NCBI GenBank assembly: GCA_039587395.1
Contig: JBDHIQ010000003.1
Coordinates: forward strand, 22,582 to 86,581
Source of the DNA: Gemmatimonadota bacterium
GTDB lineage: Bacteria; Gemmatimonadota; Gemmatimonadetes; Palauibacterales; Palauibacteraceae
DNA length: 64,000 bases
Direction: 5' to 3'
Shown: piece after piece, positions 5,873-25,758 of the stretch
Layout of the letters: each line of letters begins with the position of its first letter
How positions within the stretch are numbered: the stretch's first letter is position 1
Translations under genes and position numbers: made by a program
Notes under the pieces: model-generated
The model's database searches: none
Seen by the model: only the letters and a program-made list of their open reading frames with translations
Told to the model about the DNA's origin: nothing

Positions 5873-5884
5873 GGAGATCCCCGG

Positions 5885-7048
5885 CTACAGGTCGCTAAGG
5901 TCCGCTTGCTGGATCAGCCAGGCCGCCAGCAGATCCACGTCGGAGGCCGGCCCGGCCGGAGGCGCCGCGGGTGCTGCCGCGGTCGGTCCTGCCGAGGCGG
6001 CCGCGAGGGCGGTGAGCATCTTCAGCTCCTGCTGCTGCTGAAACGCCGTGACCGATCCCAGATCCCGTCTGGGTGCTTCATCCGGCAGGAAGCTGACCTC
6101 CAGCCGCCCGAGTGCCTCATCGCCACCGGGCTCGTGCACGAACCGGCCGGCCGTCTCCGGCAGGACCGCGGCGATGGCCGGTCCCGCCTGCTCAGCCATG
6201 GCACGCACGTCATTCGGATCGCCGGTCTGCATGACGAATACGCCCGGCGTGATGAGCCGGACCAGCGGCGCCGGGGGCGCCTGGCCGCTCACCGCGAGGG
6301 CGATCTTCTGTCCGCCATCCAGGAACTCCGCCAGGCCGCCCGCATGCAGGTCGGCCCCATTGACTTCCACGACCAGCGGCGGGGCGATCTCTCTCTCTTT
6401 CCCATTCCAGCGGTGGAACGGGAACGCCTCCATCATCGGCTCGTGCTGCTCGGCCACGTAGCGGCCGGATCGCGCGAGCTCGAAAACCCTGGCGGCACCG
6501 AAGATCCGCCCGCACTCGGCCAGGGCGGCTGCCACCTGCCCTTGCAGGTCACCGCCGGCCGGTACCTGCACCCGGTGCACCTCGGCTCCCCTGGCCATGA
6601 CCGCCGACAGCGTCTCGAACGCCCGGCGCATCGGGACCAGCTCCGCCTCACTGATCGACTCGCTGTCCCCGATGATCTCCGTCAGCCGGGCAACGTCGAT
6701 CCTGCCGGCTGCAAACGGGCCGAGCTCGCTCGCCATCCGCCCCGAACCGTCATCGTCCCGGGTCTCGTGCGCCTCCAGGTAGCCCCGCACCTGGTCCACG
6801 GTCACGGCCAGGCTGGAGTGGAACGCTTCACGCGACGGCGCCAGCGCCTCGAGCAGCGCGTCGACCGCCTCTGGACCTGCCTTGCCCTCCTCGGAAGCTG
6901 TGGCGGCGGCTGTCTCCCCCCCGGCCGTCTCCGTGGACTCCCCGGTGGCCTCTTCCTGCGCCGTATCCACGGCAGCGTCCTCGACGGCGGTCGCGACCTC
7001 GGCCGCGTCCCCCGGAGCCTCGCGGGGCTCGTCGGGCTCAGACTGCAT
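5885..7048 (-). CDS. Conserved hypothetical protein (acidic disordered N-terminus, Ala/Pro-rich C-terminus), no recognisable domain
   Basis: 387-aa ORF. Its composition looks protein-like, unlike the R-rich antisense ORF 5906..7336. It is wedged between korB and the rnfB-like gene with small gaps and overlaps the korB stop by 11 nt. The start is uncertain; internal Met codons could serve. Confidence 0.55.
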   Translation of the reverse strand: MQSEPDEPREAPGDAAEVATAVEDAAVDTAQEEATGESTETAGGETAAATASEEGKAGPEAVDALLEALAPSREAFHSSLAVTVDQVRGYLEAHETRDDDGSGRMASELGPFAAGRIDVARLTEIIGDSESISEAELVPMRRAFETLSAVMARGAEVHRVQVPAGGDLQGQVAAALAECGRIFGAARVFELARSGRYVAEQHEPMMEAFPFHRWNGKEREIAPPLVVEVNGADLHAGGLAEFLDGGQKIALAVSGQAPPAPLVRLITPGVFVMQTGDPNDVRAMAEQAGPAIAAVLPETAGRFVHEPGGDEALGRLEVSFLPDEAPRRDLGSVTAFQQQQELKMLTALAAASAGPTAAAPAAPPAGPASDVDLLAAWLIQQADLSDL

Positions 7049-7991
7049 AGCGGTCGAACTCCTGATTCAGGATGTCGATCTTCTCTTGCGCGGTATACGC
7101 CGGCAGGCCGCGCGTCTCTTCGTACCTCGGATTCGCTTCGTCGCGGAAGAAGACACCCAGACGAATCCGCTCGTCCGGCTCGGCATACCGCCGGGCCGCA
7201 TCGATGTCTTTGGGATCGTGCCGTCTCCGGTTCGTATAGATCTTCTCGAGCGCCGGCACGACGATACCCTGCTCGTGCTCCAGCAACTCGACCAGGTCCG
7301 GGTCACGCATGTAGTTCAGGAACACGTCGTCCGTGAACTTCGGACAGCGCTGGAGAATCCGGACGAACGCGAATCCGCGGTGCGCGTACGCGGCCTCTAG
7401 GGTCGCGTACAGATGCGCCGGGATCCACTCGGCCGTCTGGGCCACGAAGGACGCGTTCGTCACGCCCAGCGTAGCCTCCAGCGGGTTCAGCGCGGGGAGA
7501 TAGCTCCCGTACGGCTGCGTGTTAGTCGAATGGCCTTGCGGCGTCGTCGGCGACGTCTGGTTCTTCGTCAGGCCGTATACGGCGTTGTCCAGCATCAGCG
7601 CGACCATGTCCACGTTGTAGCGGATGGCGTGAATCCAGTGGCCGGCTCCGATCGAAACGCAGTCCCCATCGCCCATCACTGCAAAGACGTTCAGATCCGG
7701 TCGGTTCAGCTTGACCCCCGTCGCTACGGGCAACGCACGGCCGTGCAGGCCGTGGAAGCCATACGCGTTCACGTAGTGCGGGAATCGGCTCGAGCATCCG
7801 ATGCCGGACACGAACACGGTGTTCTCCGGAGTGAGTCCCTGGGAGACCATCAGCCGTTGCACGGAGGCCAGAACCGAGTGGTCGCCGCAGCCGGGACACC
7901 AGCGAGCCTGCGCCTTCTCGAAGTCCGCCATGCTGTAGTCCCGCTCCTCCTCCTGGGACATCCAGAGAAGCGAGCAGCCGCTCGCGCTCAT
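7038..7991 (-). CDS. korB: 2-oxoacid:ferredoxin oxidoreductase beta subunit (TPP-binding), KorB/OorB type
   Basis: 317 aa. It has the WCPGCGDHSV motif, the TPP-binding GDGD region and C-terminal homology to KorB/PorB. The start overlaps the korA stop (ATGA coupling). Confidence 0.9.
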   Translation of the reverse strand: MSASGCSLLWMSQEEERDYSMADFEKAQARWCPGCGDHSVLASVQRLMVSQGLTPENTVFVSGIGCSSRFPHYVNAYGFHGLHGRALPVATGVKLNRPDLNVFAVMGDGDCVSIGAGHWIHAIRYNVDMVALMLDNAVYGLTKNQTSPTTPQGHSTNTQPYGSYLPALNPLEATLGVTNASFVAQTAEWIPAHLYATLEAAYAHRGFAFVRILQRCPKFTDDVFLNYMRDPDLVELLEHEQGIVVPALEKIYTNRRRHDPKDIDAARRYAEPDERIRLGVFFRDEANPRYEETRGLPAYTAQEKIDILNQEFDRYAV

Positions 7992-9895
7992 CGGGCACCT
8001 CCTTCGGGCATATTGGCTCGAATCACGTCGTGTATGACCCCGGGCCGGAGGGGCTCGCCGAGCACACGCGTCCAGCAGTCAATGTCCACCAGCGTATGGG
8101 CTCTGAGCAGCCACGCCAGTTGCCCACGGCGCCGGTTCTCATCCGTGATGAACGGGGAGCTCGGGTCGTCGCTGTAATTGATCTCCACCGTCATCACCTT
8201 CTTGAACCGCTTGAAGATCTCCTTGAGTCCGGGCTCGAGCGGAGAGAGGAAGGTCAGGTGCAACGAGGAAACCGAGTGACCTTCCGCCCGCGCTCTGTCC
8301 ACCGCCTCTTCGATCGCACCCCTGGTGCTTCCCCACCCCACGACGAGCAGGTCGCCTGATTCGTCACCCTTCACCGTCGGGGGTCGGAGCGTCTGCTGAA
8401 GCACGGCAATCTTCCGGCTCCGCATGTCCGCGCCCCGTTGGTTGATGTCCGAAGCATACGCGACTTTGCTCCATTCGTCATGGGCCAGACCGGTCGCGGT
8501 GAACTGGCCGCCGGGCTGCCCCGGAATGAAGCGCTGCGACAGGCCCGTTTGCTCATCCCAATCGTACGGCGGCTTGTCCTCTGACACCGGGCTGAGGTCG
8601 GGCGCCGGAGCGTGCCACGACGCGTCCGCCTCGGGCCGCGGGAATGGCGTCACGCCGGTGGCCAGGTTGGCATCGGACAGCACGATCACCACGGTGCGGA
8701 ACGTTTCCGCTATCCGCCGTGCGGTGATCATGATGTGGAAGCACTCCTCGATGGTCGCCGGCGCCACCACGACGTGAGGCGCGTCTCCCGGCTGCCCGAA
8801 GATGGCCGCCAGTAGATCCGACTGCTCCACTTTGGTCGGCAAGCCGGTGCTGGGACCTCCGCGCTGGACGTCGATGACGACCAGCGGGACCTCGATCATG
8901 ATGGCCAGACCCAGAAACTCGGTCTTCAGCGCCATCCCCGGCCCGGAGGTGATGGTGAACGCCGTCTTGCCGGAATAGGAGGCTCCGATCGACACGCCTG
9001 CGGCCGCGATCTCATCCTCCGCCTGGTGCACGACTCCGCCGTACCGCTCGAATACTTCTCCCAGGTGGTGGGATACCGAGGTGGCCGGCGTGATGGGGTA
9101 CATCGCGGCCAACTCCATCCCGGCGGCGATGGCCCCGAGCGCCACGGCCTGGTTGCCGTTCATGACGACCATGTCCTGGGCGGCGGGCTTGCGCGGCACC
9201 TGGACGCGAAAGTCCAGGTTCTCTTCCGCCCACCGCACCCCCAGCTCCAGAAGCGCCACGTTGATCTCCGTGACCTTCGGCGCCTTTCGCCGGAACGCGT
9301 GCGCGATCTGCTCGCGCACCAGGTCCAGGTCCAGGTCGTGGAGGTGGGCCAGGAGCCCCAGCACGAACATGTTCTTCCCGCGCTGCGGGTCATCCACGAT
9401 GGCCAGGCACTCCTCCTCCATCGGAACTTCTATGATCCGGTAGTCGAAGCCCGACAGCTCCTCCATGACCTCGCGCCACTCCTGCTGGATGGACTCGTCG
9501 TCGTGGGTCTTCCACTTGTTCTCCAGCAGGATGATGGCGTCGGGCTCCAACGCGTCCAGCTGGTGCCGCATGGACAGAACCTGCTCGTTGAACGCCACGC
9601 TCAGGTTTGTGCGATCGCCCCAGTTGGTGACCGGCTCCGTGCCGATCCGGATCCGGTTGCCGCTGGCCCCGGCCGGCAACCGCGCCGGCGGCTGAATCTC
9701 GGCAGGGATGATCTCCACCGTCCACACGCCGTTGCCCATCTTGGCGCACACGGCCCCGAAGATCTGGCTGCACTTCTGCGCGCCCTCTCCGGAGTCCGAC
9801 ACGACCTCCACCGTCCACAGGTCCCGCTTGACTGTCCGGGGCGCCTTGCCGCGCGTCTCTGGAGCTGCCGCCGGTGTCCTGGTTTTTGTCGCCAT
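7988..9895 (-). CDS. korA: 2-oxoacid:ferredoxin oxidoreductase alpha subunit with fused N-terminal gamma domain (KorA of two-subunit KorAB type)
   Basis: 635 aa. The N-terminal gamma-type motif is VVSDSGEGAQKC...; the alpha-subunit core follows (YPITPATS, GVVHQAEDEIAAAG). True ATG at 9895-9893. Confidence 0.9.
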   Translation of the reverse strand: MATKTRTPAAAPETRGKAPRTVKRDLWTVEVVSDSGEGAQKCSQIFGAVCAKMGNGVWTVEIIPAEIQPPARLPAGASGNRIRIGTEPVTNWGDRTNLSVAFNEQVLSMRHQLDALEPDAIILLENKWKTHDDESIQQEWREVMEELSGFDYRIIEVPMEEECLAIVDDPQRGKNMFVLGLLAHLHDLDLDLVREQIAHAFRRKAPKVTEINVALLELGVRWAEENLDFRVQVPRKPAAQDMVVMNGNQAVALGAIAAGMELAAMYPITPATSVSHHLGEVFERYGGVVHQAEDEIAAAGVSIGASYSGKTAFTITSGPGMALKTEFLGLAIMIEVPLVVIDVQRGGPSTGLPTKVEQSDLLAAIFGQPGDAPHVVVAPATIEECFHIMITARRIAETFRTVVIVLSDANLATGVTPFPRPEADASWHAPAPDLSPVSEDKPPYDWDEQTGLSQRFIPGQPGGQFTATGLAHDEWSKVAYASDINQRGADMRSRKIAVLQQTLRPPTVKGDESGDLLVVGWGSTRGAIEEAVDRARAEGHSVSSLHLTFLSPLEPGLKEIFKRFKKVMTVEINYSDDPSSPFITDENRRRGQLAWLLRAHTLVDIDCWTRVLGEPLRPGVIHDVIRANMPEGGAR

Positions 9896-10066: not shown

Positions 10067-12745
10067 TCAGCCACCCGAACGTGCCCGCTCCAGCAGGGCA
10101 TCCAGGGCGCGATACCTGGTCTCCATCTCGCGGGCGACAACCTCCTCGCTCGGGTCCGAATCGGCGAGGCCGAGGAGCTGGCCGGCCCCGCTCGCGGGCG
10201 TCTCGCAGTGTGTGGCGTCGGCCACCATCGCCCGGCCCGACTCCGTGTCCCCCTCGCTCAGACCGGACTCTTCCCCCTCGTAGGGTCGCACCATGTCCAC
10301 CGCCGTGGCGAAGGACGCCATGGCCTGTTCCGGCCGGCCGCTCTTCCAGGCGATGTACCCGACCAGAAAGTGCGCCTCGCTGCTCTGCGGGTTCGACCGG
10401 AGGACCGTACTCAGATACTCCTCGGCCTCTGCCATCCGCCCGCGCAGCAGCGCCACCTGGCCCAGCCACAGCAACGAACCCGTCTCTTCCTGGTTGATCT
10501 CCAGGGCCCGTCCGAACTCCGCGGCGGCGCGTTGCGGGTCGAACAGCTGACCTCCCACGCACGTGTGAATCACTCCTACCTGGCGGTGTACGCGGGCGTC
10601 CCGGGGGTTGATCGTCAGGAGACGCTCCCAGGCCAGCGCCGCACCCGGCTGATCGCCCAGGTCGAACCGCATGTTGCCCAGCCAGTACAGCGTGTTCTCG
10701 TGCTCCGGATCGAGTTCGAGCGCCGCTTCGTAGTCCGCCGCCGCCGCACCCGTCCGCCCTTCGATGCGGTGCCGCGTGGCGCTCCGGTACAGCTCCCAGA
10801 ACCGGAGCACGGTCTCGCGGTCGGCCGACGCCGTCCCACCCTCAACCCGGGGGGCACCGGAAGCCCGCAAGGCACCGGGCACTGCGCCGGCCAGCGCCGC
10901 CTGGCCAGGCAGCGGTCCGGCCTCCGCCCGCACGATCCCCTCGCCTTCCACCAGGTCGATGGTCTGGTTGGGGGCAATCCCCGTGAACGCCTCGCGCCGG
11001 CCGCCGGGCCAGAACACTTCCAGCGTGTCCACCGGCTCGTCCACGCCGGCCAGGCCCCCGAGACCGAAGTGCTCAACGGAGCTGTTCTGGGACAGGTAGG
11101 ACCCCTGCGCACCCGCGTACCGCGACTGAACCTGCCCGCCGGCGACCAGGCGGAGCCGTGCCCCGACCGGATCCGTCCCGCCGTCCTGGGGACTCAACCG
11201 CACTTTCAGCCATGCGTTCCGGTTCCCGCCATCGTTGCGCAGAAGGACTCCGGGACCGCCGTTGTTGACGATGAAGACATCCACATCTCCATCGTTGTCG
11301 TAGTCTCCGAACGCGGCGCCGCGCCCGACCAGCGTGCGTGCGAAGTGCTCGCCGCTGGCGCTGGACACGTCGAAGAAGCCGTCTTCGGCGCCGCGGTTCC
11401 AGAACAGCTTGTCGGGCATTGCCACCAGCCGCTCGGGCTCCTCCGGTTCCTGGAAAGTGCTCCCGTTGACTACCAGCAGGTCCAGCTTGCCGTCATTATC
11501 GTAGTCGAAGAACGAGGTCCCCCACCCGATGTAGTCCAGCGCGATCTGACCCAGCCCGTGCCGGTCGGCCTCGTCCATGAACTGGAGTTGGCTCGAGGCG
11601 GGGCGGCCCAGCTCTTCCAGCCGTGACCGCATGCTGCTGAACAGCGCGTTCTCCTGGGCAATCCAGTGGGTGACGAAGATGTCCGGATCCTCATCGCCAT
11701 CCCAGTCGCCGACGGCCAGGCCCATCGCTCCCCGGTAGTCGGACACCAGCGCGGCGTGGCTCACGTCGCGGAACGTCCCGTCCCCGAGGTTGCGGTAGAG
11801 GGCGTTGTCGGACACGTCGTTGGCCACGTACAGGTCCAGCAGCCCGTCGCCGTCAAAGTCTGCCCACGAGACGCCCAGGCTGCGTCCCTCGCGGCCGTCC
11901 ACGCCGCTCTCCCGGGCCACTTCCTGGAACGTCCCGTCCCCGCGGTTCCGGAACAGAAGGTTGCGCTCGGGTCGGAAGGACGAAGGGTTGAGGCTGGCCG
12001 GCACTTCCACGTCGTACTGCAGCGAGGTCGGGCCTCCCGCTCCGGGCGAGTACTTCACGTACCCCGCCACGTACAGGTCCAGGTCGCCGTCCTGGTCGTA
12101 GTCGGCCCACGCGGCGCCGGCCCAGTAGCCCACGTGGCCGGCGATGCCGGACGCACGCGTCACATCTTCGAACGATCCATCGCCGGTGTTCCGGTACAGC
12201 CGGTTCTCCCCGTACGCCGACACGAACAGGTCCCGCCACCCGTCGCCGTCGTAGTCTCCCCAGGCGCCGGCCATGTCCAAGCCGCGGAACCTCACGCCGG
12301 CCCCATCGCTCACTTCGGTGAACGTCCCGTCACCCTGGTTGTGGTACAGGGCGCTGTGGACCGGCGCCGCCTGCAGTTCCTCCGTCGACAGCGTGAGAGG
12401 GCCTGCCAGGTTCGCCACGAATAGATCCGGCCAACCGTCGTTGTCGTAGTCTCCCCACGCGGCGCCCGACCCCATGTCCTCCGGAAGCTGGCTGCTGCGC
12501 GAGCCGGAAAAGTGACGGAACTCGATGCCTGCCTGAGCGGTCACGTCCGTGAACGTCACCCGTGGATAGTCGTCCGGCAGCGCACGGTCCAGCCCACGGG
12601 TGAGGCCCTCTATCTCCTCGCCCGGCCGGTACACGTCGCCTGGCCGCACGACGAGCCATACAGCCAGGACCGACGCCACCGTGAACAGGAGTCCGGCGCC
12701 GGCCGTGATGGCCAGATTGCGCTTGCGTCGCGGCAGATTTCTCAT
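10067..12745 (-). CDS. CRTAC1/ASPIC-UnbV family FG-GAP/VCBS-repeat protein with C-terminal TPR repeats, N-terminal signal anchor
   Basis: 892 aa. It has repeated GDYDNDGWPDLFV and WADYDQDGDLDLYV FG-GAP motifs, an UnbV/ASPIC-like middle region, and a C-terminal TPR region (YEAALELDPEHENTLYWLGN...). ATG at 12745. Confidence 0.8.
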   Translation of the reverse strand: MRNLPRRKRNLAITAGAGLLFTVASVLAVWLVVRPGDVYRPGEEIEGLTRGLDRALPDDYPRVTFTDVTAQAGIEFRHFSGSRSSQLPEDMGSGAAWGDYDNDGWPDLFVANLAGPLTLSTEELQAAPVHSALYHNQGDGTFTEVSDGAGVRFRGLDMAGAWGDYDGDGWRDLFVSAYGENRLYRNTGDGSFEDVTRASGIAGHVGYWAGAAWADYDQDGDLDLYVAGYVKYSPGAGGPTSLQYDVEVPASLNPSSFRPERNLLFRNRGDGTFQEVARESGVDGREGRSLGVSWADFDGDGLLDLYVANDVSDNALYRNLGDGTFRDVSHAALVSDYRGAMGLAVGDWDGDEDPDIFVTHWIAQENALFSSMRSRLEELGRPASSQLQFMDEADRHGLGQIALDYIGWGTSFFDYDNDGKLDLLVVNGSTFQEPEEPERLVAMPDKLFWNRGAEDGFFDVSSASGEHFARTLVGRGAAFGDYDNDGDVDVFIVNNGGPGVLLRNDGGNRNAWLKVRLSPQDGGTDPVGARLRLVAGGQVQSRYAGAQGSYLSQNSSVEHFGLGGLAGVDEPVDTLEVFWPGGRREAFTGIAPNQTIDLVEGEGIVRAEAGPLPGQAALAGAVPGALRASGAPRVEGGTASADRETVLRFWELYRSATRHRIEGRTGAAAADYEAALELDPEHENTLYWLGNMRFDLGDQPGAALAWERLLTINPRDARVHRQVGVIHTCVGGQLFDPQRAAAEFGRALEINQEETGSLLWLGQVALLRGRMAEAEEYLSTVLRSNPQSSEAHFLVGYIAWKSGRPEQAMASFATAVDMVRPYEGEESGLSEGDTESGRAMVADATHCETPASGAGQLLGLADSDPSEEVVAREMETRYRALDALLERARSGG

Positions 12746-12779: not shown

Positions 12780-14090
12780 TTACGCCGCCGGACCGTCAAT
12801 CTCGAGCACCATCACGTGCTGCACGTCCAGCTCGTCACCCCAGACGCCGTAGATCCTGGTGCCCTGGAACAGAAGCGGCATGAACCGGGGCGGCGTCGTC
12901 ACTACGCCCAGAAACCGGCCTTCCGCATCAAACACATCCCAGTCCGACCCGCCGATGGACAGCAGCGGATTGTAGTCTTCCAGCTCTTCGGCGCTGAGGG
13001 AGCTGGGAGCGACCATTTGCTGGACCCAGATCGACCCCTCCGGCCCGGCCAGGAACCGCATGTAGACCGGGAAAAACTCGGCAAAACTCACGCGCGATCG
13101 GATAGTCGGGATGGCGCTTTCCGGGACTCCCGCGTTCAGCCAGGCCTCTTCCAGGATGTCCATGAACACGCCCTCATCGGCATCCGTGACCGGCATGCGC
13201 TCGGCCGGCATGCGGATGATCCGCTCCAACTCGCCGGTCGGCCCGTACACGTTGATGGAGTACTGATCGTTGACGCCGAACAGCAGCTTGTCATTGCCCG
13301 CCAGCGCCCAGGTAGGCTCGGCCACGAAGAACGTCGCCGTGCCTGCCTGGAGATCCAGGGTCTTTCCCGACTCCATCTTCAGGAGAGTGTCCAGGGGAGC
13401 GCCTTCGGCATCGCGTGCTACGATGGCATCCATCTGTGCGGACACGTCAATCGTGTCGGCACCCGGCTGATTCGGCAGCACGAACGGGCGGATCTGGTTG
13501 ACGATCTGCCCGGACGGACGCGCCGCCCAGGCGGCAGGCAGCCCGCCCTCCAGGGACAGCCGGTAGCTGCCGGCGGGGGTCCCGTCCGGCGCGTAGCGGT
13601 TCACGCGCTGGTTGGCCAGGTCCGGCACGAACACCGTATCGCCCCGCCCGATGAGCACGGGGGCCGCCTGCGGGCTCAGCTCGCCCGGCCCGGAGCCCGG
13701 GCCCCCAAACGAACCGAGGTGACTCCCGTCTGGCCCGAACAGGCGCAGCTCCTGCGCCTGCTGGTCCAGGACGAAGATCCGCTCGTCCGACGTAACGCCG
13801 ATTCCGATGATCTGGCCGAACATGTAGGCGGGCTCGGCCTCGATGGCTCCAATCCGCAGCACTTCCCTGAGAGACCAGCGCTCGCCCGCCGTCCACATCT
13901 CCTCACGCTGGTTGCTGACGATCGTGATGCCGGCGCTGTCTCCCACCGTGCCCGTCCACGCGCCTCCCGACTCTTCCCCGCTGCAGCCGAGCGGGGCGAT
14001 AGCCAGGGTGGCGGCAGCCAGTCCGCCGAACAGTGTCACCGCCACTTTGCGGCTCTTCGAGGCCGCAGGTCCCTCTTCACTCACCATCAT
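12780..14090 (-). CDS. Beta-propeller (NHL-like repeat) lipoprotein, hypothetical
   Basis: The ORF runs to 14129, but the signal peptide with lipobox (...LAIAPLGCSG) follows the internal Met pair at about 14090. Repeated ...GxGxGPGE.../...RIYV... blades are visible. Function unknown. Confidence 0.65.
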   Translation of the reverse strand: MMVSEEGPAASKSRKVAVTLFGGLAAATLAIAPLGCSGEESGGAWTGTVGDSAGITIVSNQREEMWTAGERWSLREVLRIGAIEAEPAYMFGQIIGIGVTSDERIFVLDQQAQELRLFGPDGSHLGSFGGPGSGPGELSPQAAPVLIGRGDTVFVPDLANQRVNRYAPDGTPAGSYRLSLEGGLPAAWAARPSGQIVNQIRPFVLPNQPGADTIDVSAQMDAIVARDAEGAPLDTLLKMESGKTLDLQAGTATFFVAEPTWALAGNDKLLFGVNDQYSINVYGPTGELERIIRMPAERMPVTDADEGVFMDILEEAWLNAGVPESAIPTIRSRVSFAEFFPVYMRFLAGPEGSIWVQQMVAPSSLSAEELEDYNPLLSIGGSDWDVFDAEGRFLGVVTTPPRFMPLLFQGTRIYGVWGDELDVQHVMVLEIDGPAA

Positions 14091-14168
14091 TATCCCGTTG
14101 TCCCATCTATATAGAGTATTGGTCACCATGCTTCGGCTTCCGGTTCCCCTCTCTGCTCTCCTCCCGCC

Positions 14169-16307
14169 TCAGCGTCCGGAGGCGGGTGCCTCCGTTGTCT
14201 GGCCGACCGCGATGGTCGCCTCGGCCTCCGACATCACCGTGACCGGAGCCGTCAGACCCGAGTCCTCTCCAAACAGGAAATTCAGGAGGAACTGGTCGAA
14301 CTTCCGGTACAGGAGGCGGGCTTCCACGTGCAGCTGCGTAGCCGATCCCGCCGGCGCTTCGACGCCGAACTCTTGCTCGGTCTGGAACCCCTCACCGGCC
14401 GACTCGCCCCCCAGCATCGTGGCCGGACAGATGAATGCAAACTCGGCCTGATCCGAGAACCCGGGGAACATCGCGCGCCGGTACCGTACGCCGACCATCT
14501 CCCACAGGTTGTGGCGATCGATGAGGTTGCCGTACTGGTCTACGGGCTCCGCCTTGAAGATGAACGAGCCGGGCTCGATGAAGTGCCGCTCGTCGCGCTG
14601 CCCTGACTCGAATACCACGTTGCCCGCTTCATCGGTCACGACCAGCTCCACCCAGGCCTGGATGATATCGAGCGGTCCGGTCGGAAAGTCGTGGCCCACC
14701 TTGTTGTTCGTAATCGATACCTGGATGTCGATCGCATCGCCCGGCTGGACTCTCTCGGGCGCGATGATCTCGATCGGCACCGCCGGACCTGCCTGCCACT
14801 TGTGCGCGATCTCCGGGATCTCCAGCTCGCCGCGCAGCCACTGCCTGGTCAGGCTCACCTGCTCCTCGGCTCCCGGTAGCTGCAGCGCCACCGGCATGAA
14901 CTGATTGGCAGCCAGGAACCGGTGGCTGCGGTGCTTCCCATCGCCCGGCGAGCGGTTGTAATCCAGATCATCTCCACTCGCCGCGTCGTCCGAGTCCTGG
15001 AGCGGCATGTGGCACTCCCGGCACTCGACGGTCTTTTCCGGGTCGCCGGGGTGGTTCCAGCGGCTCTTGCGCCAGTTGTCGTACTGGTTCTGGAGCTGCA
15101 CCCAGCCCACCTGGTTGATCTCCTCGTCGATGAACTGCTTGTGGCAGGCGGCGCAGAATTCAGGGCTCTTGAACAGCGTGTGCTGCAACGTCGAGACATG
15201 GTGCCTGGGATACGCGCGGATCAGGAAATCGCTGATCCATTTTTCCCGCTCGCCCTCTCGCAGCTCGTACATGTAACGGTCCGGCTGGGTCATCACGTAG
15301 TTGGCGTTGCCCGCGATGTCCGTCTCCTTGATGGCATGGCACGCGACGCACGAGATCCCTTCCTGGTATCCGATGAGTCCCGTCAGATCGTCGGTGAACA
15401 CGTTCTTGGTGCCCGAGAACAGCGAGATGGGATCGTGGCAGCCACCGCAATAACGAGTCGACTCCGCCCCGTTCTGCTCCGCCATCACGGACTGGACCTT
15501 CTGGAAACCGGCATCCATCGCGGACCAGCGATGGGCGCTCACCTCCCACTCCTTCTTGATCTGCTCGTGGCAGCCGGCGCTGCCGCATGCCTCGGAGCCG
15601 CCCAGGGCGCGCGAGTCGAACGCGCCTCCCGTGCTCGTGTTCGCGAGGCTGGGTGCGAACGGCCGGTCCTCTCCGTACAGCCAGCTGTAGTCCTCCGGGA
15701 ACTGGTCGTTGAGCTGGGGCTCCTGGTACCGCCAGGTGAGGGCGGCCACCACCGCCAGCAAGCCGACGGTGACGATCCCGGTGCCGAGGCCGAACCGCCG
15801 TTCGGCTCCCAGGACCACCGCCGCCTTTTCGGTCCTTTTCGCCCGGACGGTCCGCAGGATCAGCGTCCCGAGGTGCGGGAGAACCGACACGACGATGGCG
15901 ACCGTGCTGACGATGTGGACGACATCCCAGGTGTAGCTGATCCGGAGTCCCCACACGGCCTGATAGGTCAGCACCAGCCCCGACACGATGGCGACCAGCG
16001 TGGCGACCAGGGCGAAGTACCCCGTCAGCACGACGTGGGACATTTGCATGCGCCGGTAGATGGCCCAGTGCCGCGCGGCGTACCAGAAGAACGGCAGCAG
16101 GAAGACCAGACCGATGGCCGTGTGCAGGAGAACCATGATCTGGTTGGAGACGCTGAACGGCAGCAGCCAAATGGACAGGCCGGTCAAGGTCTCGAAGGTC
16201 AGCAGTCCACCGACCAGGATCAGCAGCTTCCGTTTCCACTCGTCCGCGCGCGCGTACGGGTCTTTGCGCTCGGTTGAAGCTTCCATCTTCGCGTTCACGG
16301 TGTTCAT
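14169..16307 (-). CDS. Membrane-anchored multiheme c-type cytochrome (five CxxCH) fused to an N-terminal 5-TM domain containing 4 His (putative dihaem b)
   Basis: 712 aa. Five N-terminal hydrophobic helices carry His residues in LLHTAIG, ARHW, VVHIVS and LPHLG. The haem-c motifs are CGSAGCH, CGGCH, CVACH, CAACH and CRECH. A C-terminal domain of about 250 aa has no haem motif. The strong RBS GGGGAGGA lies directly before the ATG. Confidence 0.8.
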   Translation of the reverse strand: MNTVNAKMEASTERKDPYARADEWKRKLLILVGGLLTFETLTGLSIWLLPFSVSNQIMVLLHTAIGLVFLLPFFWYAARHWAIYRRMQMSHVVLTGYFALVATLVAIVSGLVLTYQAVWGLRISYTWDVVHIVSTVAIVVSVLPHLGTLILRTVRAKRTEKAAVVLGAERRFGLGTGIVTVGLLAVVAALTWRYQEPQLNDQFPEDYSWLYGEDRPFAPSLANTSTGGAFDSRALGGSEACGSAGCHEQIKKEWEVSAHRWSAMDAGFQKVQSVMAEQNGAESTRYCGGCHDPISLFSGTKNVFTDDLTGLIGYQEGISCVACHAIKETDIAGNANYVMTQPDRYMYELREGEREKWISDFLIRAYPRHHVSTLQHTLFKSPEFCAACHKQFIDEEINQVGWVQLQNQYDNWRKSRWNHPGDPEKTVECRECHMPLQDSDDAASGDDLDYNRSPGDGKHRSHRFLAANQFMPVALQLPGAEEQVSLTRQWLRGELEIPEIAHKWQAGPAVPIEIIAPERVQPGDAIDIQVSITNNKVGHDFPTGPLDIIQAWVELVVTDEAGNVVFESGQRDERHFIEPGSFIFKAEPVDQYGNLIDRHNLWEMVGVRYRRAMFPGFSDQAEFAFICPATMLGGESAGEGFQTEQEFGVEAPAGSATQLHVEARLLYRKFDQFLLNFLFGEDSGLTAPVTVMSEAEATIAVGQTTEAPASGR

Positions 16308-16376: not shown

Positions 16377-17399
16377 TCACGGCGTGATCACCCACCGGAC
16401 TCCTTCCCCCCGCCGCAGGAGATCGAACCCGTCGTTGATGTCGTCAAGCGGCACCGATCCGCTGACCACAGGGTCCAGGCGAAGCCGTCCGGATTCTACC
16501 AGGCCCAGGATCTCCGGGTACTGGCCGCCTCCGCATCCCAGGCTGCCCACCACCTCGAGCTCGTAGTACATGAGCCGGGCCGCCGACAACGAGACCGGCG
16601 CGCCGGAGTATCCAATGACACAGAGGCGCCCGCCCTTCCGGATGAGCGCAAAGGCAAGCTCGATGGTGTCCGGCTTGCCGATGACCTCGAATGCCACGTC
16701 CACGCCTCCGTCCGTCAGCTTCCGGATCTCCTTGTCCGGGCGATCGTGCTCGCTCGGGTCCAGCGTCGCCTGGGCCCCCAGCTCACGAGCCAGCTCGAGC
16801 CGCTCCCTGCTGACATCGATGGCGATCACCTTGCCCCCTGCGATGGAGGCGCACTGCACCACGTTCAGACCGACCCCACCGCACCCCACCACCGCCACGA
16901 CGTCACCGGGCCGTACCCGCCCGCGGTTCTTCACGGCGTGGTAGGGGGTGGATACGGCGTCGGCTATGACGCAGGCCTTTTCGAGCGGGAGGTCCGCCGG
17001 GACCGGCACGAGCTCGGCGGCCGGGACTTTGATGAACTCGGCGTAGGCGCCGTCCATGTCGTTCCCCGGCATCACCATGTGCTCGCAGAGGTTCTCTCGT
17101 CCGGCGCGACAGTAGCGGCACCGTCCGCAGGACAGGACCGCCGGGATCAGCACCCGATCTCCGGGAACGGCCGTTTCGACTCCCTCTCCCACGGTGTGGA
17201 CGACGCCCGCAGCCTCGTGCCCCAGGATCAGCGGCGGTGGCTTGAACGTGCGCACTCCGTGATCCAGATAGTGCAGATCCGTATGGCACATTCCGCAGCC
17301 CGCTACCCTCACGAGCGCCTCGCCCGTCCCCGGCCTGGGCGTTTCGACCTCCGTGACCTCCAGCGGCTTCCCGGAGCCATGAAACACGGCTGCTTTCAT
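16377..17399 (-). CDS. Zn-dependent medium-chain dehydrogenase/reductase (alcohol dehydrogenase family); Had-like by context
   Basis: ATG at 17399 (MKAAVFHGSGKPLEV...). It has the GCGMCHTDLH zinc motif and the GCGGVGLNVVQ Rossmann motif. The ORF track start further upstream is a non-ATG extension. Confidence 0.85.
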   Translation of the reverse strand: MKAAVFHGSGKPLEVTEVETPRPGTGEALVRVAGCGMCHTDLHYLDHGVRTFKPPPLILGHEAAGVVHTVGEGVETAVPGDRVLIPAVLSCGRCRYCRAGRENLCEHMVMPGNDMDGAYAEFIKVPAAELVPVPADLPLEKACVIADAVSTPYHAVKNRGRVRPGDVVAVVGCGGVGLNVVQCASIAGGKVIAIDVSRERLELARELGAQATLDPSEHDRPDKEIRKLTDGGVDVAFEVIGKPDTIELAFALIRKGGRLCVIGYSGAPVSLSAARLMYYELEVVGSLGCGGGQYPEILGLVESGRLRLDPVVSGSVPLDDINDGFDLLRRGEGVRWVITP

Positions 17400-17620
17400 C
17401 TTGGTTTCCTTGTGTAGATGACGCGAAACAGGGTCGTCGCGGCCGCACACGATTCGCAGAATTCCTGCAGATCATCCGCAGACGGTGGCTCGAGCCGGAC
17501 TTCCAGACCCAGCGACTCGTACAGCTCCACTGCTTCCTGCAGTCGTGGTGGCGCGCCGACGAATCGCCGCGTCCAGCCCTGGTCGTCCGGTCCATCGGGT
17601 GATAACCCGTTCCCCGGCAT
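17396..17620 (-). CDS. Small hypothetical protein (74-82 aa) between the second ATPase gene and the dehydrogenase gene
   Basis: ORF 17396..17644. The internal ATG at 17620 is preceded by GGAAGGG with a 6-nt spacer. The stop overlaps the dehydrogenase start (ATGA). Composition is protein-like, but there is no recognisable domain and only 3 Cys. Confidence 0.35.
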   Translation of the reverse strand: MPGNGLSPDGPDDQGWTRRFVGAPPRLQEAVELYESLGLEVRLEPPSADDLQEFCESCAAATTLFRVIYTRKPR

Positions 17621-17654
17621 GATCCGCCCTTCCACTATGCCCATGCCGCTTGCC

Positions 17655-18479
17655 CTACGCCGCTTCGAGGATTTCGAGCCGTCGCCGCGCCAGCACGGCG
17701 GCTCCGATCGCGCCGCTGAACTGCACCAACTCGCCGGGAGGCACGTTGACGCCCCCGTGCAGGTGCTCGCGCAGCAGCATCACCATGGTGGGGAAACGGT
17801 TGATGCCTCCGACAAGGGTGAATTCCGGCTCCATCTTGACCCGCTTCATGAGGCGAACCGACTTCTCGATCAGCGACTCCATGGCCCCCCGCATGATCTC
17901 CCCGGGTGCACGCTCCTGGCTCACGTGATTGATGACCTCGGACTCGGCGAACACCGCGCACACCCCTGAGATAGGCACGGACTCCTCGCACTCTTCCACC
18001 AGGGTGCCGATCTCTTCCGTCCCGTACCCCAGGTAGCGAGCTGTCTTCTCCAGGAAGGCGCCTGTGCCGGCCGCGCACTTGTCGTTCAAACGGAAGGTGC
18101 GAACCCGCCCCCGCCCGTCCAGGCGCATGGCCTTCATGGTCTGTCCGCCCACGTCCAGCACGGTGCGCGTGCCGGGGAAGAACGCCCGCGCGCCCCACGC
18201 GTGCGCCGTCAGATCCGTGACCTGGATGTCCCGGAACGACACCCGGTGACGCCCGTAGCCCGTGGTGGCCAGGTACACGATATCCGAACGCTCTGCCGTC
18301 GAGCCGGTCAGAGCCTGGTCCAGTGCCTGGCTGGCTGCCTCCTCCAGGCGATAGCCCGTCGGACACATGCCCGTCGCCAGCAACTCGCCGGATTCCCCTA
18401 GCAGGGCCGCCTTGGTGTACGTGGAGCCGACATCGATGCCGGCCGTGAGGTGTCCGTCGCCACGGTTGGTCCGACTCAT
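17655..18479 (-). CDS. BadF/BadG/BcrA/BcrD/HgdC-family ATPase, second paralog (BcrD/BadG-like), 274 aa
   Basis: Internal ATG ([27 protein letters not shown]) overlaps the stop of the upstream ATPase gene. It has the ASKHA-fold signature DVGSTxTK and the cluster-ligand region [10 protein letters not shown]. The upstream part of the 381-aa track ORF is an R/G-rich artefact. Confidence 0.85.
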
Positions 18480-19294
18480 GCCTCCTCCTTCCCCACCGCC
18501 GCGGGCTGACCCGCACCCTTCGCCCGCTCGAGAGCGAACAAGGCCGCACCGAGCGCCCCCATGAAATGGGATTCCTCGCTCACGTTCAGTTCCGTTCCGA
18601 CTATCTCGTTCATGACGTCCACCATTGCCTGGTTCTTTGCCACACCACCGGTGAACGTCGTTTCGCCTTCGATTCCCACACGCCGCAACAGACCGAAGGA
18701 GCGGCTCCCGATGGAGCGGTGCACTCCCAGCAGTATGTCTTCCACCGATTTGCCACGGGCCAGCCACGACAGCACTTCGGACTCCGCGAACACCGTGCAC
18801 GTCGTGCTGATCACCACCGGCGTCTTTCCGCGCTGTGTCGTTGGCCCGAGCTCATCCAGTTCCAGCCCGAGCGCGGCGGCGGCAGACTGAAGGAAGCGGC
18901 CTGTCCCCGCTGCGCATTTGTCGTTCATGCAGAAGTCGAGGACCTGCCCACCCTTCTCGATGCTGATGGCCTTCGTGTCCTGTCCCCCCATGTCCAGCAC
19001 GGTGCGCGTGTCCGGGAACATCCGGGCCGCGCCCCTGGCGTGGCAGACAATCTCCGTCACCTGGGCATCCCCGAACTCGACCTTGTAGCGGCCGTAGCCG
19101 GTCCCGATGACGAAGCCCACATCCGACGTCCGGATCCCCCCGTCCTCCAGCGCTGCCTGAAACGCGTTCTCGGCAGCCGCCACGACGTTGGCGCCGGTAT
19201 CGATCAGGTCTCGCCCTACGATCGCTCCGGACTCATCGACTATCACGGCCTTGGTCTGCGTGGATCCGACGTCCACTCCGCCGGCATACACCAT
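18476..19294 (-). CDS. BadF/BadG/BcrA/BcrD/HgdC-family ATPase, first paralog (BcrA/BadF-position but short), about 272 aa
   Basis: ATG at 19294 ([17 protein letters not shown]) is preceded by GAGGAGGA with a 5-6-nt spacer. It has the [10 protein letters not shown] motif. The track ORF starts at a GTG at 19315. Confidence 0.85.
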
Positions 19295-21945: not shown

Positions 21946-22713
21946 TCACGCGTCGCTCCAGACCGGTTCGCGCTTCTCCATGAACGCCGCCAGGCCCTCC
22001 CGGGCATCGGCGAGTCCCATGAGCTCCTCGAGATAGATCCGCTCCGCTTCGGCCAGCGCCTGTTCCAGCGGCAGACCGGCGCCCTGGACGGTCGCCCGCT
22101 TGGCAAGGGCTACAACCGGTCGGCTGAGGGAGGCCAGGTTGTTGGCGTATTCCGACACGCCTGCCTCGAACTCGTCCGCTGGAAGCAGGCGGGTGCACAG
22201 CCCACTGGCAGTCGCCTCCTCACCGGTCAGCACGCGACCGGACAGGATCAGGTCGAGGGCCCGCTGCAGACCTATCCGCCGGGGGAGAAGCGCGGCGGCA
22301 ACCGGCGGGAGGGCACCGAGCCGGATCTCGGGCTGGCCTATCTTGGCATCGGCACGCACCAGCACGATGTCGCACGCGATAGCCAGCTCACAGCCACCAC
22401 CGAGCGCCGCGCCGTTCACGGCTGCAACGACGGGCACCCGGAGTGACAGCAGCCGGCGGATCGCGCCATGAAACAGCTCAAGCATGCGCTCCACGCGGTC
22501 CGGAGTGTGATCGGCCACGTCCACGCCGGCACAGAAGGCCCTGCCCTCTCCCGTCACCACCAGGACACGGGCGTCCGCATCGTCCGCTACCTGCCCGACG
22601 GCCGCATTCAGTTCCTCCAGCATCGGGATGTGGAGGACGTTGAGCGGGGGGCGACAGAGAACGAGCCGGCGGATCCCGGCGTCGCAGTCGACTCTCAGGA
22701 ACTCGCCGCTCAC
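21946..22713 (-). CDS. Enoyl-CoA hydratase/isomerase (crotonase) about 255 aa; Dch-like by size and context
   Basis: GTG start (VSGEFLRVDCDAGIRRLVL...) overlaps the upstream stop as GTGA. It has the crotonase signature FCAGVDV...GGGCELA. The longer track ORF upstream is an R/G-rich overlap artefact. Confidence 0.8.
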   Translation of the reverse strand: MSGEFLRVDCDAGIRRLVLCRPPLNVLHIPMLEELNAAVGQVADDADARVLVVTGEGRAFCAGVDVADHTPDRVERMLELFHGAIRRLLSLRVPVVAAVNGAALGGGCELAIACDIVLVRADAKIGQPEIRLGALPPVAAALLPRRIGLQRALDLILSGRVLTGEEATASGLCTRLLPADEFEAGVSEYANNLASLSRPVVALAKRATVQGAGLPLEQALAEAERIYLEELMGLADAREGLAAFMEKREPVWSDA

Positions 22714-23813
22714 CTGGGCTCTCCCGAGCTGGCCGGCTCCCCGCTGAGGGCGGCCCCACACGCTCCGCAGTACTCGAAGCCGGCCGGTAGCCCCGGCGCG
22801 CCGCAGGCCGGACACGTGCCGACTCCCGGCCCCCACATCAGCTCGCTGGACTGTCCGGCCGCGGCCCGCTCCCGGAGCAGCCCGTAGTCCGGAGCGCGTT
22901 TCTCCACGAAAGCCTGCATGCCCTCCAGCGGCTCCCAGCAGGCGTAGTGCAGCGACAGCCAGTCCTGCGCGTGCCGGACCGTTGAATTCCAGGCCAGGTC
23001 CTTCAGGAAGTTCACCTGCTGCTTGGTGTATCGCGTGCACTCCGGGAAGGAGGCCAGGAGCTTCCCGCACAGGTCGTCCACATGCCCATCCAGCCGTGAC
23101 AGGTCGATGGCGTACCCATCCACTCCCTTCTGCGCCTTCTTGATCTGCTCCGCCGTCGCCTCTTCGACCCATTCATCCGCATGCCGAACCGACGGGACAA
23201 CCCAGTTCACCAGCCCCCAGTCGAGCGCCTTCACGGCCGGAATCGGCTCGTTCAGAAACAGGATCTCCCGGGCGCGCTTGTCACCCACGACCAGGGGAAG
23301 CCACTGGGTGGATCCGCCGCACGCTACGGAGCCCACGTGCGTGCCCACCTGCTTGATGTACGTGTGCTGCGCCATAACCGAGAGATCGCATGCCAGCTGA
23401 CTCTCGTTCCCTCCTCCCACGGCCATCCCGTTGAGGCGGGCGACGACGGGCTTGCCCGTGTTGAGGATGCTCTCGATGTATGCCCGAAACAGCGCCATGT
23501 ACTTCCAGTAGTCGCGCGGGGTCTGTACGTAGAGGTCCGCGTACTCCTTGACGTCGCCGCCGGTACAGAACGCTCTGTCCCCCGCCCCGGTGTAAATGAT
23601 CACTCCCACGCGGTCGTCAAACGACGCATCGCGAAACGCCGTCGCCAACTCCTCCAGAGCCGGAGTTGAATAGGCGTTGTAGTTATGGGGTCGGTTCAGG
23701 GTGACCCGGGCCACTCCGTCGCCCTTCTCGTACAGAATGGCCTCGAACTCGAAATCAGCGGCGGCTCGAGAGCCGAAAGCGCGCTGGTCGGATCCGTTGT
23801 CTGCCGTGTTCAT
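22710..23813 (-). CDS. Extended crotonase-fold protein (367-388 aa) with C-terminal CxxC...CxxC zinc-ribbon; Oah/BamA-like by size and context
   Basis: ATG at 23813 (MNTADNGSDQ...) lies 1 nt after the tetR stop. The track start GTG at 23876 would overlap tetR. The crotonase core is AFCTGGDVKEY...AVGGGNESQLACD. The C-terminus is CPACGAPGLPAGFEYCGACGAAL. Confidence 0.8.
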   Translation of the reverse strand: MNTADNGSDQRAFGSRAAADFEFEAILYEKGDGVARVTLNRPHNYNAYSTPALEELATAFRDASFDDRVGVIIYTGAGDRAFCTGGDVKEYADLYVQTPRDYWKYMALFRAYIESILNTGKPVVARLNGMAVGGGNESQLACDLSVMAQHTYIKQVGTHVGSVACGGSTQWLPLVVGDKRAREILFLNEPIPAVKALDWGLVNWVVPSVRHADEWVEEATAEQIKKAQKGVDGYAIDLSRLDGHVDDLCGKLLASFPECTRYTKQQVNFLKDLAWNSTVRHAQDWLSLHYACWEPLEGMQAFVEKRAPDYGLLRERAAAGQSSELMWGPGVGTCPACGAPGLPAGFEYCGACGAALSGEPASSGEPR

Positions 23814-23814
23814 G

Positions 23815-24486
23815 TCACTCACCGGTTTGAGTTGGCGGTTCGTCTTCGTAAAGGTGTGCCTGGCCCAGGAGTCCACCGATCAGGTGCTCCACGAACTCGG
23901 CTCCCAGCTCGGGCGAGCCCATGGCGCCCTCCGGATCGTACCAGCGAGCGATCCAGTTGATGGCCCCCAGAACGGCGAAGCTGGCGATCTTGGGGTCCAC
24001 GCTGCGGAACTCGCCGTCGGCCACGCCCTGCGCGATGATCTCGCGCAGCCTTCTCTCGTACCTGTCGCGCTCCTGGACGACCTCTGCCTGCCGCTCGGGG
24101 GAGAGAGCGGTCACCTCCAGGGCCAACGGCGAGCCCTCGAGCACTTCCGTCATCACTCGAACGTGCTCGCGGATCACGTGGGACAGCCGGTCGCTGGCCG
24201 TCTCGAAGCGGGCGTAGGTCTCCTCCATCACCCGCGCCAGTTCGTCCAGAGAAATCCGGTGGCACTCGAAAAGGATGGCCTCCTTGTCCGGGAAGTAGTA
24301 ATAGAGCGCCGTCTTCCGCAGGCCGAGGTTGCTGGCGATCTCCTCCAGCGTGGTCCCGTAGAAGCCCTTCTCGCGAAACGTGCGCAGCGCGGAGCCCAGG
24401 ATTTCGTCCCGGCGCCGGCGTCGCTTCTTGCGAACGTGTGGCGACGACTCTTTCAGCCGGGCCGGTTTCAAACCGCTGGATGCCAT
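23815..24486 (-). CDS. TetR/AcrR family transcriptional regulator, first gene of the operon
   Basis: ATG at 24486 (MASSGLKPARLK...). It has the HTH block GFYGTTLEEIASNLGLRKTALYYYF. Confidence 0.85.
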   Translation of the reverse strand: MASSGLKPARLKESSPHVRKKRRRRRDEILGSALRTFREKGFYGTTLEEIASNLGLRKTALYYYFPDKEAILFECHRISLDELARVMEETYARFETASDRLSHVIREHVRVMTEVLEGSPLALEVTALSPERQAEVVQERDRYERRLREIIAQGVADGEFRSVDPKIASFAVLGAINWIARWYDPEGAMGSPELGAEFVEHLIGGLLGQAHLYEDEPPTQTGE

Positions 24487-24695: not shown

Positions 24696-25145
24696 ATGCT
24701 CTATTCCGGAAGCTGCGAATACGCGATCCGGGCGCTCACCTTCCTGGCACAGCGCCCGACGGGCAAACTGACGTTGCTGGGCGACATCGCCGAGGCGGAG
24801 GCGATCCCGCGTGCCTTTCTGGCAAAGGTGCTCCAGGACCTGGTCCGCAAAGGGCTGCTGCGCTCGGCCCGTGGACCCACGGGCGGATACGCGCTTGCTG
24901 ACGCACCCGACAGAATCACGCTGTACGACATTCGCGACGCCGTGGACGGGACCGAGGATCTATTCCAGTGCGCGGTTGGACTGGATCCCTGCTCGGACGA
25001 AACGCCGTGCCCGCTGCACGAGACTTTCAAGCCCCTGCGGGCAGCGATAGAGCGATACCTGCGGGACACCACGATTGCTGACCTGGCTCGCGGGATGTGG
25101 GAGAAACGCGCCCTCATCGCGCAGCGTAGCCTACGGGACGGCTGA
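24696..25145 (+). CDS. Rrf2 family transcriptional regulator (BadM-like), divergent from the operon
   Basis: ATG at 24696 (MLYSGSCEYAIRALTFLA...). A C-terminal Cys triad region (CAVGLDPCSDETPCPLH) suggests Fe-S ligation. Confidence 0.85.
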   Translation: MLYSGSCEYAIRALTFLAQRPTGKLTLLGDIAEAEAIPRAFLAKVLQDLVRKGLLRSARGPTGGYALADAPDRITLYDIRDAVDGTEDLFQCAVGLDPCSDETPCPLHETFKPLRAAIERYLRDTTIADLARGMWEKRALIAQRSLRDG

Positions 25146-25253: not shown

Positions 25254-25673
25254 GTGATATCTCAGACGGCCGAGTACGCGCTAAGAGCCGTGCTCCACCT
25301 GGCACAGCACGCCGACGACATACCGGTCTCCGTCGATGCCGTGGCGGAAGCGCTGGAGATCCCGCGCAACTATCTCTCCAAGATCCTCCACACGTTGGCC
25401 AAGAGCGGTGTGCTGACTTCGCATCGTGGACCGCGCGGTGGATTCAACCTGTCGGTCCCGTCGGCCGAGCTCTGCCTGCTTGACGTGATCAACCCGTTCG
25501 ATCGCGTGAGTGAGCGCCGGCTGTGCCTGCTGGGCCGCAAGGAGTGCAGCGACGCGACACCGTGTCCGGCCCACCACCGCTGGCGGGCGGTGAGCGACCA
25601 GGTGAGCGATTTCTTCAGCGACACGACCATCGAGCAGTTCCTCGCAGAAGGCATGGGCAAGGAAGCCAACTGA
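25254..25673 (+). CDS. Rrf2 family transcriptional regulator, second tandem copy
   Basis: GTG start (ISQTAEYALRAVLHLA...). Cys residues are at CLLGRKECSDATPCPAH. Confidence 0.8.
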   Translation: MISQTAEYALRAVLHLAQHADDIPVSVDAVAEALEIPRNYLSKILHTLAKSGVLTSHRGPRGGFNLSVPSAELCLLDVINPFDRVSERRLCLLGRKECSDATPCPAHHRWRAVSDQVSDFFSDTTIEQFLAEGMGKEAN

Positions 25674-25758
25674 CGAGAGTGACGCGCAACCACCGAGACG
25701 ATATTTTCCTGCCGTAACCGCATGACGTTCCGGACCGTCACCCAGACCGGTCAGAGCC

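Follow-up and report, generated by a model that had tools for sequence, protein, structure and literature searches.

Two short, distinct ATPases from a Gemmatimonadota genome as probable alpha and delta subunits of an MBR-type aryl-CoA reductase

The class I ATP-dependent aryl-coenzyme A (CoA) reductases are divided into BCR-, MBR- and BZD-types (PMC11971306). The modules of the BZD-type are predicted to join transiently only, whereas the MBR-type is a permanent tetramer; the activators of the 2-hydroxyacyl-CoA dehydratases use ATP catalytically, with the one electron being recycled, and not stoichiometrically (PMC11971306). An enzyme of the MBR-type has been purified, and its four-subunit complex has been structurally solved, since the chains of MbdO and MbdN occur together with MbdQ and MbdP in the same PDB entries (9gai, 9gal and 9gba). 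This study deals with a stretch of 64,000 nucleotides (nt), referred to as the window, from a metagenome-assembled genome (MAG) of a Gemmatimonadota bacterium of the family Palauibacteraceae (GenBank assembly GCA_039587395.1, contig JBDHIQ010000003.1, positions 22,582 to 86,581), and with two adjacent genes for short ATPases of the BcrAD_BadFG family that it contains. With high confidence, we assign these genes to a class I, ATP-dependent reductase of aryl-CoA (benzoyl-CoA-type) that belongs to the MBR-type, with one gene encoding its alpha and the other its delta subunit. All positions given below are those of the window, and the coordinates of the features are listed in Table 1.

In the PDB, the best match of the alpha protein is MbdQ, the alpha subunit of 3-methylbenzoyl-CoA reductase (9gai_D, 269 amino acids), with an E-value of 1.3e-108 and 65% identity, and that of the delta protein is MbdP, the delta subunit (9gai_C, 273 amino acids), with an E-value of 3e-82 and 53% identity. 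The cross-identities are lower, with 38% for alpha against MbdP and 40% for delta against MbdQ; the matches are reciprocal and subunit-specific, and the alignments run from end to end. Identity to HgdC and HadI, which are homodimeric activators, is only 33-43% for both ATPases. Judged by pairwise identity and end-to-end alignment, alpha and delta are orthologous to MbdQ and MbdP, and the locus therefore represents a phylogenetically distant further member of a known enzyme type.

The initial annotation of this DNA had proposed that two distinct ATPases of about 272-274 amino acids form a heterodimeric, ATP-driven electron-activating module which matches neither the class I reductases, understood as having one long and one short ATPase, nor the homodimeric dehydratase activators. 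The sizes are correct, as the proteins have exactly 272 and 274 amino acids and are 41% identical to each other, and the idea of an electron-activating module of two short paralogues stands. However, the supposed mismatch with both patterns does not, because two short, non-identical ATPases are standard in the MBR- and BZD-types, which are two of the three types, and because the two proteins are orthologues of MbdQ and MbdP. It had been assumed that BzdQ comprises about 430-440 amino acids, which is contradicted by the NCBIfam model of BzdQ (TIGR03192), whose length of 293 positions was used here as the length of this protein. The BcrD model has 262 positions, and among the NCBIfam models scanned the only long one is that of the Thauera/Rhodopseudomonas-type BcrA with 432 positions. 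A new electron-activating module outside both patterns is thus extremely unlikely: the HgdC-like size of both subunits, their mutual identity and their scores below all NCBIfam Bcr and Bzd equivalog cut-offs could be cited for it, but MbdQ and MbdP show the same architecture at 65% and 53% identity in solved four-subunit structures, the BzdQ model is short as well, and the MBR- and BZD-types have already been named (PMC11971306).

Both genes are genuine and full length, and neither is degenerate. The alpha reading frame extends from an ATG at 19294 to a TGA at 18476-18478, and the two frames fill the interval 17655-19294 exactly. The start codon of delta and the stop codon of alpha share the tetranucleotide ATGA at 18479-18476, which corresponds to an overlap of 4 nt, and a Shine-Dalgarno-like GGAGGA precedes the start of each of the two genes. 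The Pfam model BcrAD_BadFG is spanned end to end by both ATPases (positions 2-271 of 271). Between alpha and the upstream beta gene lie 32 nt, and the alignment of the beta product with MbdO stops no more than two residues short of the MbdO C-terminus. At least four NCBI MAGs that were assembled independently contain an identical locus, in which the two genes are again called with 272 and 274 amino acids, and the exact protein occurs on 13 contigs. Because of the short gap, the identical independent assemblies and the conserved lengths, a hidden frameshift, which the initial annotation had considered, is not present, and the degenerate pseudogene that it had also considered is contradicted by the ATP-binding motifs and ligand cysteines, all of which are intact in both proteins. 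It is therefore barely conceivable that an assembly error has cut one of the genes short or that one of them is decaying into a pseudogene. Nothing at the window points in this direction, and the one sign of indels at this junction is a related locus with alpha and delta in a single frame, which is described below; the end-to-end matches to Pfam and PDB, the identical independent assemblies, the lengths kept in 80 species and the intact motifs all speak against it.

To assess the motifs, alpha and delta were aligned with MbdQ, MbdP, HadI and HgdC. This alignment check, which had been suggested in the initial annotation, showed that the invariant columns of the family are all retained in both proteins (DxGST, GYGR, GGQ, NDKCAxGTG, ISxxCxVFAExEV, GG and GAxGAA). 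The ASKHA nucleotide-binding motifs DVGST, GGQ, GG(V/I) and GA(L/I)GAA are complete in both ATPases. The cysteines, for which a check had likewise been proposed, gave a clear result, as Cys127 and Cys166 of alpha and Cys135 and Cys174 of delta align with Cys127 and Cys166 of HgdC and lie in the invariant NDKCA and CxVFAE motifs. In the structure 1HUX, it is these two HgdC cysteines that ligate the [4Fe-4S] cluster bridging the subunits. In addition, the phosphate-2 motif has the form GGQTMK in both the window delta and MbdP, and these two proteins share an insertion of two residues near the C-terminus.

The genes surrounding the ATPases support the assignment to a reductase. Four co-encoded subunits, two catalytic ones of the HGD-D family and the two BcrAD_BadFG ATPases, were confirmed. 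On the minus strand, the order is TetR regulator, Oah-like, Dch-like, gamma, beta, alpha, delta, a small open reading frame (orf82) and Had-like, and the neighbouring genes overlap by 4 nt at the Oah/Dch, alpha/delta and orf82/Had junctions and by 1 nt at the gamma/beta junction. The repressor MbdR of the mbd cluster is a TetR-family protein, too (PMC4424350). In the PDB sequence search, the catalytic subunits gamma and beta matched BzdN and BzdO (E-values 1.6e-27 and 8.7e-19) and the dehydratase subunits HadC and HadB (9.5e-40 and 1e-30) far more weakly than MbdN and MbdO. Alternatively, the genes could belong to a 2-hydroxyacyl-CoA dehydratase or another radical enzyme of the BCR/HAD family, with two activator paralogues that use ATP catalytically. 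The generic Pfam matches (HGD-D and BcrAD_BadFG), the MAG annotations as dehydratase or activase and the significant matches to HadB and HadC models and structures would fit this explanation, but we regard it as very unlikely, since the matches to MbdN and MbdO are better than those to HadB and HadC by about 100 orders of magnitude, the operon contains Dch-, Had- and Oah-like ring-processing genes, and dehydratase systems, such as that on plasmid pAZKH of Azoarcus sp. KH32C, have a single activase gene.

Table 1. Location of the ATPase genes and of the other described features in the window, with the supporting matches
Feature	Position	Strand	Evidence
ATPase 1, alpha subunit (MbdQ orthologue), 272 aa	18476..19294	-	PF01869 E 1.6e-64
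ATPase 2, delta subunit (MbdP orthologue), 274 aa	17655..18479	-	PF01869 E 6.3e-52
Gamma subunit (MbdN orthologue), 407 aa	20691..21914	-	MbdN 9g87_B E 5.4e-157; TIGR02263 BcrC 265 bits, below 421
Beta catalytic subunit (MbdO orthologue), 454 aa	19327..20691	-	MbdO 9g87_A E 7e-137; HGD-D Pfam match
Dch/MbdW-like dienoyl-CoA hydratase-like crotonase, 255 aa	21946..22713	-	TIGR03189 E 2e-51, below cut-off
Oah/MbdY-like ring-opening hydrolase-like crotonase, 388 aa as called	22710..23876	-	TIGR03200 E 5e-63, below cut-off
TetR-family regulator	23815..24486	-	Pfam TetR_N; NCBIfam TetR-type matches
Small open reading frame (orf82), 82 aa, CxxC	17396..17644	-	Conserved position after delta
Had/MbdX-like 6-hydroxycyclohex-1-ene-1-carbonyl-CoA dehydrogenase-like zinc-dependent alcohol dehydrogenase, 340 aa	16377..17399	-	TIGR03201 E 5e-79, below cut-off
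2-oxoacid:acceptor oxidoreductase, alpha 7988..9895 and beta 7038..7991	7038..9895	-	TIGR03710 531 bits, above cut-off; TIGR02177 E 1.6e-72
aa, amino acids.

Several points weigh against the assignment to an MBR-type reductase. Every NCBIfam equivalog score (BcrA/B/C/D, BzdN/O/Q, Dch, Had and Oah) is below the curated cut-off, so that no curated model assigns a function or a substrate; at the domain level, TIGR00241 is exceeded with 256 and 215 bits against a cut-off of 125 bits, and this model spans the whole superfamily. The details of the MBR ATPase module were taken from PDB chain names and sequences. The examined parts of the window contained neither an aryl-CoA ligase nor a gene for a small ferredoxin, and the substrate preference may differ because the identity to the characterised enzyme is only 53-65%. 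A reductase of the MBR-type whose substrate is neither benzoyl-CoA nor 3-methylbenzoyl-CoA, but for example another substituted, halogenated or bicyclic aryl-CoA, is a possibility that deserves consideration, although we think it the less probable case. It is a sub-case of the assignment made here, in which the ATPase pair would work alike; the fact that beta and gamma are only partly identical to MbdO and MbdN, the scores below the equivalog cut-offs for the Dch-, Had- and Oah-like genes and the missing benzoate-CoA ligase in the parts examined are in line with it, and nothing specific was counted against it.

The distribution of the locus was analysed in a scan for relatives with one genome per species, which resulted in 582 confirmed relatives, and the conservation counts refer to the best 80 of these. 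The closest database homologues show 74-83% identity, are almost all 269-290 amino acids long and originate from Gemmatimonadota MAGs, in which they carry generic labels such as "acyl-CoA dehydratase activase" or "2-hydroxyglutaryl-CoA dehydratase". Most of the best 80 belong to the Gemmatimonadota, and the others include MAGs labelled as Chloroflexota/Anaerolineae, Eisenbacteria, Binataceae, Acidobacteriota, Planctomycetota, Acidimicrobiia and Betaproteobacteria/Burkholderiales, with two labelled as archaea. The order gamma-beta-alpha-delta is present in all of them wherever the contig permits a view, and the two paralogues are kept as a pair wherever the contig extends past the alpha gene, with median lengths of the orthologues of 272 (alpha) and 274 (delta) amino acids. 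The translational coupling that the initial annotation had deduced from the overlap of stop and start codon is well conserved: of the 73 junctions that could be scored, 58 have a 4-nt ATGA or GTGA overlap and another 4 an overlap of 1 nt. In a library of representatives at 50% identity, the MBR-type alpha family consists essentially of one cluster (P0156, 272 amino acids, 68% identity). A protein search in a plasmid collection returned only YjiL/HgdC-like activases with up to about 44% identity; the match on pAZKH was rejected, as this locus is of the dehydratase type, having one activase, and does not encode a reductase.

Two deviations were observed among the related loci. In a long-read MAG of the Gemmatimonadales (L065, positions 8001-9700, CAWCUU010000002.1), alpha and delta lie in one frame of 569 amino acids with a GC-rich linker of about 40 amino acids, while delta retains its Shine-Dalgarno sequence and its ATG; this fusion may be natural or may result from an assembly indel of 1 nt that deleted the ATGA stop. 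Two MAGs of Gemmatimonadaceae and Gemmatimonadota (L064 and L079) contain two extra BcrAD-type ATPase-like regions just upstream of gamma, which are 37-43% identical to alpha, suggesting that a second system of the BCR/HAD family adjoins the module in some genomes.

The small protein orf82 may be a putative accessory component of these reductases and is the sole element near the locus without a known counterpart. Its reading frame begins 10 nt after delta, with Met9 as an alternative start that would possibly shorten the protein to 74 amino acids, and it follows delta in about 70 of the 80 genomes, which represent related species of several phyla. Its conserved core, GWxRRFxxxPPRLxExxxLYxxLGxEVxxE...CxxC...FRxIYTR, contains 13 invariant columns in the alignment, including both cysteines. 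Homologues in a large protein database comprise only 35 clusters, all of which are annotated as "hypothetical protein". No sequence match was found in Pfam, NCBIfam or the PDB, including the chains of 9gai; PDB matches to designer PPR proteins were discarded as spurious, since they are a summed-repeat artefact. The AlphaFold model is weak (predicted local distance difference test, pLDDT, of 65) with a beta-alpha-beta-alpha-beta arrangement, and a Foldseek search of this model against the PDB yielded nothing at E <= 0.001. It is conceivable, but in our opinion rather doubtful, that the lineage from Gemmatimonadota, Chloroflexota and other phyla constitutes a distinct MBR-like subtype, in which orf82 would be a fifth component that could, for example, assist in cluster assembly, serve the entry of electrons or regulate the ATPase module, and the substrate would perhaps not be (methyl)benzoyl-CoA; the ATPase pair would still be conventional.

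For the MBR-type reductase assigned here, orthology, intact motifs, operon context and conservation are shown by the sequences, and activity, substrate, ATP stoichiometry and electron donor can be proposed by analogy with the known enzymes. By homology, alpha and delta would form a heterodimer of the ASKHA fold that holds one [4Fe-4S] cluster at its interface, ligated by two cysteines of each subunit, namely Cys127 and Cys166 of alpha and Cys135 and Cys174 of delta. This bridging cluster would receive its electrons from reduced ferredoxin, which the 2-oxoacid:acceptor oxidoreductase, with its genes at a distance of about 8 kb, may regenerate. Each subunit would then bind and hydrolyse one ATP, corresponding to one ATP per electron, and thereby drive a conformational switch, by which an electron of very low potential is sent to the Fe-S clusters of the MbdN/MbdO-like gamma/beta dimer. 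This dimer would reduce the aromatic ring of the aryl-CoA to a cyclic dienoyl-CoA, and the Dch-, Had- and Oah-like enzymes would subsequently hydrate it, oxidise it and open the ring.

The wider neighbourhood contains further genes, all of them on the minus strand. The 2-oxoacid:acceptor oxidoreductase (635 and 317 amino acids) is located in the region 5000-9895 near a protein of 387 amino acids without a family match and an RnfB-like poly-Fe-S protein of 290 amino acids. These three features, 8-12 kb downstream, may be candidates for the supply of low-potential electrons. Directly downstream of the operon, a protein of about 710 amino acids with weak matches to multihaem cytochromes c is encoded (14169-16307), followed by a protein of 449 amino acids without a family (12780-14129) and an FG-GAP/ASPIC/TPR protein of 892 amino acids (10067-12745); all three neighbours are also present in sister MAG contigs. 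Upstream of the TetR gene, there are two adjacent small genes (24701-25117 and 25281-25760), which are called Rrf2-family regulators in sister contigs and had no NCBIfam match at E <= 1e-5 in the frames submitted. The Oah-like crotonase has a zinc-ribbon-like segment at the C-terminus (residues ~353-377, with DUF7577 and DZR matches below threshold). With the start as called, about 60 nt of the crotonase gene lie within the TetR gene, and the true start is probably located further downstream, because related loci align only from residue ~34.

Two short and distinct ATPases are normal for the MBR- and BZD-types, and the pair itself adds very little that is new. The value of the locus lies in annotation and ecology, as generically labelled MAG genes can be placed among the ATP-dependent aromatic-ring reductases. 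A survey of bcr genes found none in 37 reference genomes of the FCB superphylum (PMC10936416). Since the operon occurs in many Gemmatimonadota and in MAGs of Chloroflexota, Eisenbacteria, Binatia, Acidobacteriota and others, our results suggest that surveys relying on bcrABCD annotation underestimate how widely aromatic compounds are degraded anaerobically through class I enzymes. How abundant the operon is in Gemmatimonadota MAGs may have escaped notice, in part since its products stay below every NCBIfam equivalog cut-off.

The closest known system is MbdONQP (PDB 9g87, 9gai, 9gal and 9gba), with which the window shares two distinct ATPases of about 270 amino acids (alpha 272 against 269, delta 274 against 273), the cysteine ligands, the ATP motifs and the GGQTMK motif and insertion of delta, and, with the mbd cluster, a TetR-family regulator and ring-processing genes. 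However, MbdONQP derives from a denitrifying betaproteobacterium and the window from a Gemmatimonadota MAG; the gene order in the window is gamma-beta-alpha-delta (N-O-Q-P), whereas that of mbdONQP would be beta-gamma-alpha-delta, as implied by the gene name only; and the conserved CxxC reading frame of 82 amino acids after delta is without a sequence match among the chains of 9gai. The BCR-type of Thauera and Rhodopseudomonas (BcrCBAD and BadDEFG) has the same order gamma-beta-alpha-delta and an ATP-driven mechanism with a bridging [4Fe-4S] cluster, and its catalytic subunits are moderately similar (265 bits with the BcrC model and 215 bits with the BcrB model). The difference lies in its long alpha subunit: about 170 of the 432 positions of the BcrA model have no counterpart in the window alpha, which scores 198.6 bits against a cut-off of 578 bits with TIGR02259 and aligns with residues 59-254 to model positions 230-432. 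The BZD-type (BzdNOPQ of Aromatoleum sp. CIB, with the BzdNO structure 8s02) likewise has two short ATPases, which dimerise, bind ATP and share a bridging cluster (PMC11971306), but its catalytic subunits are only distantly related to the gamma and beta subunits of the window, and the scores with its equivalog models stay below the cut-offs (TIGR03190 94 against 454 bits, TIGR03191 74 against 449 and TIGR03192 186 against 380). The dehydratase activators HgdC (1HUX) and HadI (4EHT) share the fold, the size of about 260-270 amino acids, the two cluster-ligand cysteines and the nucleotide motifs. However, activators of the HgdC, HadI and FldI type are homodimers from a single gene, a pattern that the window pair does not follow, as it consists of two paralogues encoded together with catalytic subunits of the reductase type.

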